Source: Escherichia coli
GTDB lineage: Bacteria > Pseudomonadota > Gammaproteobacteria > Enterobacterales > Enterobacteriaceae
NCBI RefSeq assembly: GCF_003334305.1
Contig: NZ_QOWS01000008.1
DNA length: 64,000 nucleotides
Reading direction: 5' to 3' (one strand)
A program made the translations under genes and the position numbers. The notes beneath the pieces were generated by a model. That model was given only the letters and a program-made list of their open reading frames with translations. It was not told where the DNA came from and did no database searches. Within the stretch, counting starts at the first letter, position 1. Each line of letters begins with the position of its first letter. This document shows, one piece after another, positions 51,495-58,981 of the stretch.

Positions 51495-54298
<2,804 letters not shown>

Positions 54299-54329
54299 GT
54301 TATTTCTGAAACGAGGAAAGAAAAGATAT

Positions 54330-54362
54330 TAACTGAACTTAATTTATAAAATTAAGTTCAGT
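54330..54362. terminator. perfect 33-bp palindrome (15-bp stem, 3-nt loop), bidirectional terminator candidate between nikR and the hicB-like gene
   Basis: AACTGAACTTAATTT-ATA-AAATTAAGTTCAGTT read directly from sequence. Confidence 0.55.
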
Positions 54363-54417
54363 TGCATAGATAGATCCTGTAAAGGCAGATATTCTGCGTA
54401 ATGTACGCCGCTAAAAT

Positions 54418-54777
54418 TTATAAATGATTCAAACGCTCATTCAGTGTTTCAATAATATAGGTATTAACAGAGACTTGTTGCTGCGCAGCCGCATTATTAA
54501 GGCGTTCACTCAGCGATTCTGGATAGCGTAACGTAAAGGTCTTAATCTTTTCTGTACGCGCATACGGCTCAATACCCGCAGCTTTACAATCCTCAAGATA
54601 CTCTCGCAGGGAAAGTTCCCCTTCTTTTTGCAGCCCCTGAATGCTGTCAGAGACAAAATCACAATAACCTGACAAGCCCAGGAATTTGCCACGAAATGCA
54701 TTCAGTTCTGGCACGTAAGTGATAACTGCAGGTTGCCCGGCAATCTCCATAGAGTTTGGCGTCTTCAGTTTGATCAT
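54418..54777 (-). CDS. HicB-family antitoxin candidate with C-terminal ribbon-helix-helix DNA-binding tail
   Basis: 119-aa ORF; RHH-like C-terminus TFTLRYPESLSERLNNAAAQQQVSVNTYIIETLNERL; 4-nt ATGA overlap with upstream HicA-like ORF. Confidence 0.6.
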   Translation of the reverse strand: MIKLKTPNSMEIAGQPAVITYVPELNAFRGKFLGLSGYCDFVSDSIQGLQKEGELSLREYLEDCKAAGIEPYARTEKIKTFTLRYPESLSERLNNAAAQQQVSVNTYIIETLNERLNHL

Positions 54778-55049
54778 GGTTTTACCCCTATACTTAGTAA
54801 CCAGTCACGCACGCTTTCTACAGCGCCTTTATCGGTATCTGGCGACGGATGAGGCCGATGGAAACACGCAACGCTCATATTTAGTATGAACTTACAACGC
54901 GAACCTCTTCCTTCCTTAATTTCTCCGCCTAATGCTTTAACCAGTGACTCTATATCAGACCACTTGATCCCTTGAGGAACAGGAGTTTTAAATATTTGAT
55001 CCAATGTATTTTTTTGTTTCTTCCGTAAAGCCTGTACCTTGGTTCTCAT
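54774..55049 (-). CDS. HicA-family (YcfA-like) mRNA-interferase toxin candidate
   Basis: 91-aa basic ORF MRTKVQALRKKQKNTLDQIFKTPVPQGIKWSDIESLVKALGGEIKEGRGSRCKFILNMSVACFHRPHPSPDTDKGAVESVRDWLLSIGVKP with the conserved His-Pro core; toxin-first order typical of hicAB. Confidence 0.6.
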   Translation of the reverse strand: MRTKVQALRKKQKNTLDQIFKTPVPQGIKWSDIESLVKALGGEIKEGRGSRCKFILNMSVACFHRPHPSPDTDKGAVESVRDWLLSIGVKP

Positions 55050-55050
55050 G

Positions 55051-55102
55051 GCATGTCCTTATGACTTCACTTTATGACATCAATAGTATGACATCACAGT
55101 AT
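55051..55102 (-). promoter_or_regulatory. operator-like repeat cluster upstream of the hicA-like gene
   Basis: Direct repeats TATGACATCA (55062..55072 and 55077..55086) nested within inverted repeat ATGACTTCA ... TGAAGTCAA, directly 5' of the toxin start. Confidence 0.45.
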
Positions 55103-55121
55103 GAAGTCAAGTTTCCCTTCC

Positions 55122-56249
55122 TTACGCCATTGTCCCAATCGTCTTCCTGAATCGCAGCAGCGCGATGGTGAAAAACGCGCCGCCAATTGCCATCAGCGTC
55201 AGGAACTGCGGCCAGACGATTTCGAATCCGGCACCCCGGTAGAGAATGGCCTGCGCGAGGCTAACAAAGTGTGTCGTCGGCATGGTCAGCATAATGTCCT
55301 GCACCATCTGCGGCATACTTTCGCGCGGCGTGGATCCACCGGAAAGCATTTGCAGCGGCAGCAGCACCAGAATCACCAGCAGCCCCAGTTGCGGCATTGA
55401 ACGCGCTATCGTCCCCATAAAAATGCCGATTGACGTGGTGGCAAACAGACTGAGCGCCACGCCCAGCATAAACAGCGGGATCGAGCCTTCAATCGGTACA
55501 CCCAGCACGCCTTTCACCATCAGCACCAGTGATAATCCCGACACCACCAGCACCACCAGCCCCATCGACCAGACCTTTGCCATCATGATCTCAAACGGCG
55601 TTATCGGCATCACCAACAAGTGTTCCACCGTGCCGTGTTCACGCTCGCGGATCAGCGCCGATCCGGTCAATACAATCGCCAGCATGGTAATGTTGTTGAT
55701 GATTGCCATCACCCCGCCAAACCACGCGGGATCAAGGTTCGGGTTAAAGCGCATCCGGGTTTCCAGCGATACCAACGGTTCGCTGTTATCACGGTAGCGC
55801 GCGACAAAGCTGTTCACTTCACCGTTGATAATATTCTGGATATACCCATTGCCGGTAAATGCCTGGCTCATGCGCGTGGCATCGACGTTCACCTGAATAT
55901 CCGGCTGGCGTCCGGCGAGGACATCACGCTGAAAATTAGGCGGAATATTTATCGCAAAGGTATAACGCCCGGCGTCCAGTCCGGCATCCATCTCATCGGC
56001 GGTGATCATCTCCGGTGGCAAAAACCACGGGCGATAGAAGCTGTTAACGATCCGGTTCGATAACTGCGATTGATCCATATCGGCAATGGCGATCGGCGCG
56101 AGGTTCAACGATCCTGGCGTAACGGTCGCTGACGAATACACCGACACCGTAAACGAGAAGACAATCAGCGTCAGCATCGCTTTATCACCGAGCAGACTGC
56201 GCAACTCTTTGATACCCAGATTAAAAATATTGCGTAAATGGCGCATCAT
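55122..56249 (-). CDS. yhhJ: ABC-2 family transporter permease
   Basis: Membrane [34 protein letters not shown]; start taken at ATG 56249 overlapping rbbA stop (ATGA); the adjacent ATG 56246 is an alternative; ORF track extends to 56330. Confidence 0.9.
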
Positions 56250-58981
56250 CCCTCCTGTTTTTTCAGCAGCAGGATACTTAAGCCCATCACCAGCGGGATG
56301 GCTATCAGCAACGGGATAAAAAGTTGCCACAAATCAGTCAGATCCAGCGCCTTCGAGAACGTCCCGCGGGCGATAGTCAGAAAATGACTGGTCGGGTAAA
56401 CCTCGCCGATCCAACGTCCAGGCCCTTCCAGCGAAGCTACCGGATCGATCATCCCGGAAAACTGTGTCGCCGGGATCAACGTGATAATCGCCGTTCCGAA
56501 AATGGCGGCAATCTGGCTTTTCATAAAGGTGGAGATCAGCAGCCCCATTCCGGTGGCAATGATGATATACAGCAGCGCCGCCAGGGTGAGCGTCAGGAAA
56601 CTGCCTTTATGCGGTACGCCAAACACAAACACCGACAGGCCGCAGAGCAGGAAAAAGTTCAGCATCCCCAGCGCGATGTATGGCAACTGTTTACCAAGCA
56701 AAAATTCACTACGCGTGGTGGGGGTCACGTAAAGGTTGATAATCGACCCAAGCTCTTTTTCCCGCACCACGCTAAGGGCGCTTAGCATTGACGGGATCAT
56801 CATCAGCAGAAGCGGGATCACCGCCGGAACAATCGCTGGCAGGCTTTTTACGTCCGGGTTATAGCGATAGCGCGTCTCAATATTCATCAGCCCGCTTTGG
56901 CTGGCGGGTGTGGATTGTCGGCTCGCCACATCCTGTAGCCAGCTCTGGTGCATGGCCTGCACGTAACCTTTTACCGTTTCGGCACGGCTCGGCATCGCTC
57001 CGTCGATCCAGACGCCGAGTTCCACAGGCGTACCACGCGCGATATCGCGCCCGAAATTGGGAGGGATCTCAATTGCCACCGTTATATCGCCCGCACGCAT
57101 CCGACGATCAAGCTCGTCATAACTGGTGAGCGGCGGCTGTTCGATAAAGTAACGGGAACCGGAGAGATTGAGCGTCCACGCCTGGCTACTGACGGTCTGG
57201 TCGCGGTCGAGCACCGCAAAGCGCAGGTTTTCCACATCCATACTGATGCCGTAACCCATTATCAGCATCAGGATCACTGTTCCCATCAGCGCCAGCGTCG
57301 AACGTACCGGATCGCGTCGCAGTTCCAGTGCTTCGCGGCGGCTGTAGCTAAACAGACGGCGCAGGCTAAATCCCTGACGCGGCGCGTGGGTGGTGTCGTG
57401 TATCACGGGCGGCGCTTCGGCTTCGTTGCTCTGTCCTGCCGCTTCCTGCAAATAGGCGATAAATGCCTCTTCCAGACTGGCGGCTCCGCGTTTCTCAACC
57501 AGTTCCTGCGGTGTACCGCTGGCGAGCACTTTTCCGGCGTGCATCAGTGAGATGCGGTCGCAACGTTCCGCTTCGTTCATAAAGTGGGTGGAGATAAAAA
57601 TGGTTACTTTGTCCTGGCGCGAGAGATCGACCATCAACTGCCAGAACATATCCCTCGCCACCGGATCGACGCCAGAAGTAGGTTCATCGAGGATTAACAT
57701 CTCCGGGCGATGAATCACCGCCACCGCCAGCGAAAGCCGCTGGCGAATGCCGAGCGGCAATGACTCCGGCAGAACATCTTCAACGTCGTTGAGCTTAAAA
57801 CGCTCGCTCATTTCAGCCACTCGCGCGGGAATTTCCGCTTCCGGGATGTGAAACAAACGGGCATGTAACTCAAGGTTTTGCCGCACGGTGAGTTCGTTAT
57901 AGAGCGAAAACGCCTGCGACATATAGCCCACCCGACGGCGGGTATCGATATCTTTTGGATCAACCGGTTGCCCAAACAGCCACGCCTCACCTTCGCTGGC
58001 GGGCAGCAGTCCGGTGAGCATTTTCATGGTGGTGGATTTACCGCAGCCGTTCGATCCAAGAAAACCAAAAATCTCCCCGCGTGGAATGCGGAAATTGACG
58101 TGATCAACGGCAACGAAGGAACCAAAACGCATGGTCAGATCGCGCGCTTCGATGGCAATCTCTGCATTTTCAGGTTGATACGGTGGGATCACTACCGCCT
58201 GATGCGCCTGGCGTTGCGCTTGCGGTAACAGATTTATAAACGCCTCTTCCAGCGTGGCGCTTTGCGTTTGCTGCCGCAGCTCTTCGGCGCTGCCAGTTGC
58301 CAGCACTTCTCCGGCATTCATCGCTACCAGCCAGTCGAAGCGTTCGGCCTCTTCCATATAGGCGGTGGCGACCAGCACGCTCATATTGCTCTGCCGCTGG
58401 CGAATACTGTCGATCAGATCCCAGAACTGGGCGCGGGAGAGCGGGTCAACCCCCGTTGTTGGCTCATCAAGGATCAACAGTTCCGGGTCGTGGATTAACG
58501 CGCAGCACAGCCCCAGTTTTTGCTTCATCCCGCCGGAGAGTTTACCTGCCGGACGATCGCGAAACGGTGCTAACCCGGTGCTGGTCAGCAGCTCATTAAT
58601 TCGGACTTCCCGCTCCGCTTTATCGTGACCGAACAAGCGAGCGAAAAAATCGACATTTTCATACACCGATAAGGTGTGGTAGAGATTTTTGCCCAGCCCC
58701 TGCGGCATCCAGGCGATGCGCGGGCAGACGTCGCGGCGATGCTTCGGGTCGCGCATATCGCCGCCCAGCACCATCACATTGCCCTGTTCAATGACGCGGG
58801 CACCGGAAATCAACGACAACAAGCTCGACTTCCCGACGCCGTCCGGGCCAATCAGCCCGACCATGCAACGGGCCGGAATATCGAGTGTGATATTGTTCAG
58901 CGCAACGGTTTTTCCATAATGCTGGCTCACGCCCGCCAGTTGCGCGACAGGCGGGACGGGAACCAGTTCCAGATGCGTCAT
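56246..58981 (-). CDS. rbbA: ribosome-associated ATPase; fused tandem ABC ATPase plus ABC-2 permease
   Basis: 911-aa ORF with two Walker A motifs ([18 protein letters not shown]) and a C-terminal multi-TM domain. Confidence 0.94.

Follow-up and report, generated by a model that had tools for sequence, protein, structure and literature searches.

The closest described relatives of the locus analysed here are the HicAB toxin–antitoxin (TA) systems, one of them in Escherichia coli K-12. There, hicAB (hicA b4532/hicB b1438) lies at 1,509,286–1,509,924, between yncJ and ydcR, and encodes, from genes 45 bp apart, a 58-aa HicA with catalytic His23 and a 138-aa HicB with an HTH domain (PMC11594946). 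A second group, comprising Yersinia pestis HicA3B3 (4p78, 4p7d), Burkholderia pseudomallei HicAB (6g26) and Streptococcus pneumoniae HicBA (5yrz), combines RHH-type HicBs of about 135 aa with HicAs of 58–66 aa that depend on His28, His24 or His36. A histidine at the start of β2 is needed for toxicity/RNase activity in the HicAs of E. coli K-12, Y. pestis, B. pseudomallei, S. pneumoniae and Neisseria gonorrhoeae, and the catalytic residue of the characterised proteins is His23, His24, His28 or His36 (PMC12297915; PMC11594946). The HicA studied in S. meliloti likewise has the canonical histidine, and an expression paper on O157:H7 uses 'hicA/hicB' for the generic E. coli system, citing K-12 studies. 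In Y. pestis and B. pseudomallei, inverted repeats flanking the hicAB promoter serve as operators (PMC11594946).

The window, that is, the whole 64-kb stretch of DNA that was analysed, carries a pair of this family between nikR and yhhJ. As nikR ends at 54298 and the stop codon of yhhJ begins at 55122, the region 54299–55121 is exactly the complete 823-bp intergenic interval, and it is filled by hicA, hicB, a predicted promoter and a predicted terminator, without any recognisable mobility gene. The initial annotation had described two overlapping minus-strand ORFs of 91 and 119 aa that form a compact, toxin-first operon between two core genes. This description holds in full: both ORFs are in the ORF list, hicA lies upstream of hicB, the two share a 4-base ATGA overlap, and nikR and yhhJ flank them. 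Both CDSs are also present in the RefSeq/PGAP annotation, where they are named as HicA/HicB family members. The features, in order of position, are as follows.

53897–54298, plus strand: nikR, left core flank; homology to K-12 ends at 54304.
54321–54363, minus strand: intrinsic-terminator-like hairpin (terminator scan; inverted repeat 100% complementary).
54418–54777, minus strand: hicB-like gene for a 119-aa antitoxin; RefSeq WP_000593555.1 is the identical protein.
54774–54777, minus strand: ATGA, 4-base overlap of the hicA stop and hicB start codons (read from the sequence).
54774–55049, minus strand: hicA-like gene for a 91-aa toxin; RefSeq WP_001259385.1 is the identical protein.
55056–55060, minus strand: Shine-Dalgarno motif AAGGA (read from the sequence), 6 nt upstream of the hicA ATG (55049).
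55060–55109, no strand assigned: four TATGAnnTCA repeats, forming a putative operator array for HicB (direct/inverted repeat search).
55083–55110, minus strand: predicted sigma-70-like promoter, TTGACT-16 nt-TACTAT (consensus scan, 9/12 matches).
55122–56246, minus strand: yhhJ, right core flank; its stop codon (55122) is the exact point at which homology resumes, both in K-12 and in strains that carry only the sugar island described below.

We consider it probable that this locus is a type II TA operon of the HicAB family, intact and acquired horizontally, for which we infer toxicity, an RNA target, neutralisation and operator binding. Established here are the structure of the genes, their assignment to family and fold, their conserved pairing, the mobility and population distribution of the cassette and the alternative contents of the locus. 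The cassette belongs to a known family, of which it is an ordinary and uncharacterised example, already annotated by RefSeq in ~2,000 genomes, and finding a recognised, annotated TA cassette in a variable region of E. coli is by itself of little weight. The unusual point is its toxin subfamily, which appears from alignment to have an arginine in place of the usual catalytic histidine.

In the proposed operon, a single promoter by the yhhJ stop codon would give rise to a transcript carrying hicA and then hicB, with translation of the two coupled, as the ATGA overlap suggests, and a strong hairpin would terminate the transcript. The predicted promoter starts 12 bases past the stop codon of yhhJ. 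At the other end, the terminator-like hairpin, with a perfect 15-bp stem and a 3-nt loop (54331–54363) followed by a T-rich tail, lies 55 bases past the stop codon of hicB and shortly after that of nikR (RNA fold z-score −3.5); an Rfam scan of 53800–55400 at E ≤ 1 returned no RNA family. HicA would most likely halt growth through action on RNA. HicB, in turn, would most likely neutralise it through an N-terminal partial RNase-H-like domain and, as an RHH dimer or as a tetramer of the kind formed by RHH-type HicBs, repress the operon from the four TGAnnTCA repeats. The copies of TATGAnnTCA begin at 55060, 55073, 55087 and 55100 (spacing 13/14/13), and each contains the small palindrome TGAnnTCA, the outer two copies being reverse complements of one another. 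Together they span the −35 hexamer and the −10, up to the Shine-Dalgarno motif. TATGANNTCA matches the window five times, four of them within this array, against 1.45 matches expected in the window as a whole, a degree of clustering far above chance. HicB may bind at these repeats, and the putative operator is comparable in this respect to the inverted repeats that serve Y. pestis and B. pseudomallei HicAB.

The 119-aa protein, mildly acidic (pI 5.44), had been proposed to be HicB-like with an RHH tail, and profile and structure searches bear out this placement in the HicB family (PF05534/COG1598–COG4226). It matched Pfam HicB (PF05534, E = 3.5e-15, residues 60–112) and, in PHROGs, the 'HicB-like antitoxin' phrog_9151 (6e-13, residues 8–118), as well as phrogs of Arc-like repressors (down to 1.3e-6). 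Weak RHH matches covered residues 76–116 (Arc, 0.018; CopG_antitoxin, 0.022; FitA-like). In the AlphaFold2 model (pLDDT 85), four strands and a long helix occupy residues 9–67, and the C-terminus folds into two helices (87–99 and 104–117) preceded by a β-prone segment. The best Foldseek matches were the HicB structures 6g26_B, 4p7d_B, 6u0i_B and 4p78_A, with Arc (1b28) matching the tail; for the N-terminal part the E-values were weak (6g26_B, E = 0.02 at probability 1.00; 4p78_A, TM 0.59 over 64 columns). [quoted passage not shown] A phmmer search against PDB sequences gave chance-level matches plus Arc repressor at E = 0.27.

For the 91-aa protein, a HicA-like assignment and a basic character had been suggested, and both stand (pI 9.95; K+R 17 versus D+E 9). 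On profile evidence it is a member of the Pfam HicA superfamily (COG1724): it matched HicA_toxin (PF07927, E = 3.7e-9, score 37.0) over residues 30–80 and model positions 1–52 of 58, nearly all of its homologues carry a precomputed PF07927 flag, and PHROGs returned 'toxin' (phrog_8887). The predicted model contains the dsRBD-like α1-β1-β2-β3-α2 fold expected of HicA and matches solved HicA structures in Foldseek. This α-β-β-β-α core (residues 30–86) follows an N-terminal helical extension (~1–29) that is conserved among more than 200 full-length homologues. G49-S50-R51 sits at the β1/β2 turn, and H64-R-P-H67-P comes after β3. Searches of the PDB were less productive: phmmer found no HicA and nothing at E ≤ 10, and a profile search recovered only HicA 9svk, marginally (E = 0.096). 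Neither protein matched an NCBIfam model, nor any family at E ≤ 1 among the PADLOC-DB v2 defence-protein models, so that neither a curated equivalog nor a known defence system is supported.

The pair is not the K-12 hicAB, as had been stated from the outset, since the K-12 pair lies elsewhere in the chromosome and shows no credible similarity. Compared with their K-12 counterparts, the nikR–yhhJ HicA is longer, at 91 aa, with a 29-aa N-terminal extension, and has Arg at the catalytic position; the HicB is shorter, at 119 aa, with an RHH in place of an HTH domain; and the genes overlap by 4 bp instead of being separated. An hhalign comparison of the two HicBs gave nothing. That of the long-HicA alignment with K-12 HicA (as a single sequence or within an alignment of 28) gave only a 13-residue match of α2 to α1 ('R-WLES-GV'), and we rejected a homology register or circular permutation based on it as an artefact of helix composition. 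For both models, the best structural matches are the RHH-type HicABs of Y. pestis, B. pseudomallei and S. pneumoniae, with sequence identity of just 8–20% in the structural alignments. From these the locus differs in its shorter HicB and in a HicA that has Arg51 and an extra N-terminal helical segment.

The HicA hallmark G-x-H is altered almost throughout the long-HicA subfamily: the glycine (G49) is kept, and the histidine position is taken by Arg51 in 142 of 147 representatives. H64 and H67 are equally conserved (145/147 and 143/147), and G49, S50, R51, H64, P66 and H67 are each present in at least 142 of the 147. R51 falls on the catalytic-histidine position in three independent alignments, namely to PDB 9svk HicA, to K-12-type HicAs and in the register of the Pfam match, and lies at the predicted start of β2 in the structure model, although the alignments to canonical HicAs are weak (E = 0.1 for 9svk; 0.002 for K-12-type, in a 28-sequence database). 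The sole representative with His at position 51 (P0319) has Tyr at position 67, a hint of coupling between the two positions. Given an essential histidine replaced by a near-invariant arginine, together with near-invariant H64 and H67, the catalytic arrangement of this subfamily may differ from that of textbook HicA, and the present toxin, while a member of the Pfam superfamily, is at most a putative member of the class of His-dependent HicA RNases.

Taken further, these observations suggest a TA operon of the same architecture whose toxin would not be a canonical His-dependent RNase, acting either through a relocated R51/H64/H67 site or by non-cleaving binding to RNA or ribosomes, with the basic N-terminal extension aiding target binding. 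RelE-type toxins cleave RNA via Arg, Lys and Tyr and not a His–Glu pair, so an Arg-based RNA-cleaving site would be chemically plausible. Besides the conservation pattern and the His51/Tyr67 pairing in P0319, this reading draws on gonococcal HicA, in which the histidine after β3 is spatially near the catalytic one (PMC12297915). However, the H40A mutation of the same protein is without effect on toxicity (PMC12297915), so that its PxH histidine has no catalytic role, and the low scores of the alignments that define the position of R51 also count against it. We regard a non-canonical toxin as possible, and hold it only tentatively. Our literature search found no experiment on the nikR–yhhJ pair or on any member of the long-HicA subfamily, its phage and plasmid relatives included. 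The locus is thus a second E. coli HicAB system, apparently untouched experimentally, with a toxin that lacks the histidine deemed essential in all characterised HicAs, and the role of R51, H64 and H67 bears on whether HicA chemistry is more plastic than assumed.

A wider form of the same idea would make the long HicAs a mechanistically distinct branch of HicA, using Arg51/His64/His67 or non-cleaving RNA/ribosome binding, and serving also as the C-terminal warhead of giant secreted polymorphic toxins; we find this doubtful. Such a branch would be marked by its size (1,000 or more clusters at the 50% identity level), a length of 84–91 aa, a helical extension at the N-terminus, G-S-R instead of G-S-H, and an invariant H-R-P-H-P motif. 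The domain was found in 1,017 clusters at 50% identity (E ≤ 1e-10), and this number, with the six residues that 142 or more of the 147 representatives share, indicates that it is under purifying selection. On a single metagenomic contig, the same domain forms the end of a 2,052-aa protein with a weak Fil_haemagg_2 match. This layout is typical of polymorphic toxins and appears supportive only of use as a toxin module. We set it aside as strong evidence of toxicity, given the single contig, the weak Fil_haemagg_2 match and the absence of a HicB-like gene downstream on that contig.

At the population level, the interval proved highly variable. It had been proposed that K-12 carries rhsB here and that the site is a hotspot exchanging accessory cargo; comparison of nikR–yhhJ intervals across E. 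coli agrees on both points. The K-12 order is nikR-rhsB-yhhH-yrhC-yhhI-yhhJ, and its homology to the window stops at 54304 and restarts at 55122, with breakpoints at the nikR and yhhJ stop codons. Four alternative occupants were counted: hicAB, rhsB, a PTS sugar island (alone in ~1,056 genomes), and the island together with hicAB (~583 genomes). Among 5,426 complete E. coli genomes, 2,074 (38%) carry the hicAB cassette. None of the loci examined held both rhsB and hicAB, and the counts of locus states add up to ~5,247 of the 5,426 genomes, consistent with the two excluding each other at this site. Like hicAB, the RhsB element (rhsB-yhhH-yrhC-yhhI) is accessory cargo of the toxin/immunity type in the same interval; the two are unrelated in sequence as well as mechanism, and the RhsB element is far larger (6.7 kb versus 0.8 kb). 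A single chromosomal site with four alternative cargoes is a good subject for work on the exchange of accessory modules. The G+C content of the interval (41%, versus 57% in the flanks) and its presence in 2,074 of 5,426 genomes mark the cassette as probably of foreign origin.

Many carriers no longer encode an intact toxin. In 787 of the 2,074, hicA has a stop at codon 2 together with deletion of one 14-bp unit of the operator repeat (the ACN001-type allele), and the HicB protein beside it is intact and identical. Another null allele has a 1-bp frameshift within the GSR codons, again with hicB intact, and further truncated hicA products were found. Recurrent, independent hicA knockouts with hicB kept are as expected if loss of the toxin is tolerated and the antitoxin retained; frequent null alleles could equally reflect neutral decay of the cassette in E. 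coli. These alleles, and the absence of the cassette from 62% of complete genomes, are what one would see if it were a selfish or decaying passenger without a cellular role in E. coli, maintained by addiction or by hitch-hiking in the hotspot, with perhaps only the HicB repressor in use. We think this unlikely, since hicA in the window is intact and its protein identical to that of O157:H7 and many other lineages, ~1,280 genomes are without the ACN001-type allele, and the domain is strongly conserved across phyla. As a passenger status would concern biological role and not molecular mechanism, it is compatible with the TA-operon explanation. With hicB invariant and hicA present in both intact and null forms, the locus offers natural material on whether the toxins of chromosomal TA systems are maintained or purged.

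Relatives outside E. coli retain the organisation of the TA operon. Homologues of 50–60% identity on Azospirillum-like and other metagenomic contigs adjoin a PF05534 HicB, and the distant pairs L015–L017 share the 4-bp hicA/hicB overlap. The same pairing occurs on plasmids of many genera (e.g., Legionella, Vibrio and Rhizobium) and in Burkholderia and Ralstonia phages, with further relatives in prophage-like context, and the toxin precedes the antitoxin in distant relatives on plasmids, phages and metagenomic contigs alike. The phage and plasmid pairs (phrog_8887/phrog_9151; e.g., Burkholderia phage ST79 and Ralstonia phage Dina) show ~50% identity over ~92% of the toxin, with HicB adjacent, and their long HicAs resemble the present one in length (84–91 aa) and in the GSR and HRPHP motifs. 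They reside on mobile elements, whereas the nikR–yhhJ copy is chromosomal, between core genes. The distribution of the cassette and its relatives (38% of genomes, plasmids, phages, low G+C) is patchy and mobile, as in type II TA modules.

Defence against phage is a function of several type II TA systems, and variable hotspots comparable to nikR–yhhJ are places where defence genes gather. An abortive-infection module, in which infection would deplete HicB and thereby free HicA, would also sit well with the relatives in temperate phages and prophage-like regions and with the PHROGs class of moron/host-takeover genes. No PADLOC model matched either protein, however, and the neighbours are nikR and yhhJ, with no adjacent defence genes; we judge such a putative anti-phage role improbable.

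Finally, that the ORFs are chance or misassigned and the interval a non-coding spacer, a reading to which only the empty NCBIfam and PADLOC searches lend anything, we rejected outright in view of the significant Pfam and PHROG matches of both proteins, the confident predicted folds and the conserved synteny of the pair. Each protein is conserved from end to end in more than 200 homologues, RefSeq annotates the same CDSs, and both ORFs are, on comparative evidence, real genes.

The nikR-yhhJ interval (54299-55121) is exactly the gap between the stop codon of nikR (54298) and that of yhhJ (55122), and ORF calls together with the sequence confirm that, as initially annotated, it is filled by two overlapping minus-strand ORFs of 91 and 119 aa, joined by an ATGA overlap and flanked by the signals listed below.

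Features of the hicAB cassette
55110-55083, minus strand: sigma-70-like promoter, TTGACT-16-TACTAT, starting 12 bases past the yhhJ stop codon
55060, 55073, 55087 and 55100, overlapping the promoter: four copies of TATGAnnTCA, found by repeat search
6 nt upstream of the hicA ATG, minus strand: AAGGA, read from the sequence
54774-55049, minus strand: hicA-like ORF, 91 aa
54418-54777, minus strand: hicB-like ORF, 119 aa
54363-54321, minus strand: terminator-like hairpin (perfect 15 bp, T-rich tail), closing the hicAB operon

With a pI of 9.95, and 8 K+R vs 1 D+E in residues 1-29, the 91-aa product is basic; the pI of the 119-aa product is 5.44. G+C content is 41% in the interval vs 57% in the flanks, as would be expected of acquired DNA; no Rfam family matched the nikR-yhhJ region. 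Each TATGAnnTCA copy contains the palindrome TGAnnTCA, the outer two copies are mutual reverse complements, and the array accounts for four of the five matches to this pattern in the 64-kb window, against 1.45 expected. It is a putative operator for the ribbon-helix-helix (RHH) domain of HicB; in Y. pestis and B. pseudomallei, HicBs of the RHH type bind to inverted repeats that surround their own promoters (PMC11594946). On the neighbouring gene, the mechanical yhhJ ORF extends to a GTG at 56330 (window 55122-56330, 402 aa), while the RefSeq protein of 374 aa ends at 56246, where the rbbA stop overlaps it; this start difference is trivial and marks no feature.

The HMM search proposed in the initial annotation assigned the 91-aa protein to Pfam HicA_toxin (E = 3.7e-9, residues 30-80) and the 119-aa protein to Pfam HicB (E = 3.5e-15, residues 60-112); weak matches to Arc, CopG and FitA at residues 76-116 agree with the RHH tail noted there. 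The HicA/HicB-like reading of the pair is further upheld by PHROGs ('toxin' phrog_8887, 7e-27, for the 91-aa protein; 'HicB-like antitoxin' phrog_9151, 6e-13, and Arc-like repressor families for the 119-aa protein) and by the RefSeq labels of identical proteins, 'type II toxin-antitoxin system HicA family toxin' (WP_001259385.1) and 'HicB family antitoxin' (WP_000593555.1). NCBIfam and PADLOC searches gave no match for either protein. The predicted HicB structure (pLDDT 85) consists of a four-stranded sheet and long helix (residues 9-67) followed by two C-terminal helices; its top Foldseek matches were HicB chains of B. pseudomallei, Y. pestis and E. coli, and its tail matched Arc repressor, all with weak E-values. 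The cassette belongs to a known, already annotated system type, as an uncharacterised HicAB-family member and no new type.

It is also distinct from the canonical K-12 hicAB, as had been claimed. The latter lies between yncJ and ydcR (1,509,286-1,509,924) and encodes a 58-aa HicA and a 138-aa HicB, compared with 91 and 119 aa here; K-12 HicB carries an HTH domain (PMC11594946). Profile comparisons of the cassette pair with K-12 HicA and HicB found no credible similarity. The cassette is a second HicAB system, distantly related to the first.

All characterised HicAs require, for toxicity or RNase activity, a histidine that follows a conserved Gly and lies where beta2 begins (His23 in E. coli, His24 in B. 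pseudomallei and N. gonorrhoeae, His28 in Y. pestis, His36 in S. pneumoniae; PMC12297915, PMC11594946). The motif at this site in the cassette's HicA is G49-S50-R51, and four lines of alignment and prediction place R51 at the canonical His position: the Pfam HicA_toxin match; the solved HicA 9svk, aligned by profile ('RGSH' against 'rGsr'); collinear HMM alignments with K-12-type HicAs, equating R51 with His23 and H67 with His38; and a predicted beta2 beginning at residue 51. Searching 1.84 billion representative proteins returned 1,017 clusters of homologues (E ≤ 1e-10). Among the best 147 representatives, Arg51 was conserved in 142, His64 in 145 and His67 in 143. The N-terminal extension shows conserved positions as well (L16, F20, P23, W30). 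The cluster number and these conserved residues therefore define a large, coherent 'long HicA' subfamily, whose conserved set, judged from the alignments, differs from that of characterised HicAs. PF05534-type HicBs accompany long HicAs on plasmids, in phages of Burkholderia and Ralstonia, and in metagenomic contexts that resemble prophages. The only representative with His51 (P0319, GSH) has Tyr for His at position 67 (HRPYP), so that the two positions may co-vary, an anecdotal case of a single sequence. No experimental study of any long HicA member was found in the literature searched.

Taken together, the cassette is probably a functional type II HicAB-family module. Its anatomy, family and fold assignment, conserved pairing, mobility and distribution are shown by the analysis, while toxicity, target, neutralisation and operator binding are inferred. 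HicA, of dsRBD fold, would be a toxin with RNA as its most likely target, the N-terminal domain of HicB would neutralise it, the RHH domain would repress the promoter via the TGAnnTCA array, and the two genes would be co-transcribed and translationally coupled. Nested in this toxin-antitoxin model is a non-canonical chemistry, with a relocated R51/H64/H67 site or a non-cleaving mode, which we regard as possible though the less probable case. Since the catalytic histidine is missing, we place the protein in the HicA superfamily and withhold a place among the His-dependent HicA RNases. The locus itself would not surprise a specialist; the active-site difference poses a modest, directly testable question.

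The comparison of nikR-yhhJ intervals suggested earlier was made by junction-specific searches in 5,426 complete E. coli genomes.

Contents of the nikR-yhhJ interval
hicAB present, whatever the state: 2,074 genomes
hicAB alone, nikR-hicB junction as in the window: 1,491 genomes
Island plus hicAB: about 583 genomes, by subtraction, including O157:H7 and the divergent strain TB06052
GntR/PTS/FGGY-kinase/aldolase island alone: about 1,056 genomes
nikR-rhsB junction, K-12 type: 2,117 genomes

The site occurs in at least four states, together covering about 5,247 of the genomes; the cassette was chromosomal in every case and adjoined yhhJ wherever it occurred. K-12 MG1655 has the order nikR-rhsB-yhhH-yrhC-yhhI-yhhJ, and its homology with the window ends at 54304 and restarts at 55122, in agreement with the position of rhsB given in the initial annotation. 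Junction counts and K-12 breakpoints thus show the idea of an exchange hotspot to be correct. The island, a third alternative cargo (5.9 kb, between nikR and yhhJ/hicB; L004:12601-18201, L006 and L008:3353-8962 among the comparison loci), encodes a GntR regulator, galactitol-type PTS IIA/IIB/IIC, an FGGY kinase, an HPr-like protein and a class II aldolase, its substrate being unannotated; strains such as H105 and Ecol_316 carry it alone. Directly past the yhhJ stop, ~87 bp are shared at ~91% identity by the island-only and K-12 rhsB states (L004:18223-18309, L001:8093-8179). This segment is missing in hicAB states, where the hicA promoter adjoins the yhhJ stop codon, and hicAB may therefore have replaced it, or vice versa, in one event.

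The window's hicA allele is intact and the same as in O157:H7. Two lesions recur elsewhere.

Defective hicA alleles
L009:1860-2215 (E. coli ACN001; window 54760-55125): null allele, 14-bp unit lost: TGATGTCATACTAT
L010:9001-9168 (comparison locus; window 54885-55049): frameshift allele, 55-aa product P0094

In the ACN001-type allele, codon 2 is TAA and one 14-bp operator unit is missing, the deletion recreating a -10-like TAAAGT at unchanged spacing; HicB is identical (WP_000593555.1). It was found at ≥99% identity in 787/5,426 complete genomes (38% of carriers), or roughly half of the genomes with hicAB alone if confined to that state as in ACN001. PGAP calls a 76-aa 'HicA family toxin' on it from a downstream start. 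The frameshift allele has a 1-bp deletion in the G-S-R codons, ending HicA at 55 aa (…EGRGGAVSSY), and occurs in 7 complete genomes and many drafts; it is listed in 858 blocks of the assembly collection. Truncated or chimeric products P0039, P0067, P0068, P0071 and P0072 point to further independent lesions. Repeated loss of hicA with hicB kept fits a truly toxic or costly protein, with neutral decay as the alternative. That the cassette is a selfish or decaying passenger, a reading about role and not mechanism, is possible but the less probable case, and a part in abortive-infection defence is unlikely; chance ORFs at 54299-55121 are excluded.

Among the long HicA homologues, one representative makes up the C-terminal end of a protein of 2,052 aa that also gives a weak filamentous-haemagglutinin match (Fil_haemagg_2), encoded at L014:5001-11159 in JGI metagenome 3300036715 and ending in a complete long HicA with GSR and FHRPH motifs. 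No HicB-like gene lies downstream; a 90-aa ORF and a YafQ/ParE-type toxin come next. The layout is that of a polymorphic toxin with HicA as a warhead-like domain, a hint at most because it comes from one contig. P0301 (337 aa) likewise ends in a HicA domain (Pfam HicA_toxin, 4.5e-8). Some HicB homologues bear the database name 'DNA repair protein', and several long HicA entries, among them P0052, P0055, P0058, P0077 and H167, are named 'hexulose-6-phosphate synthase', evidently a propagated mis-annotation.
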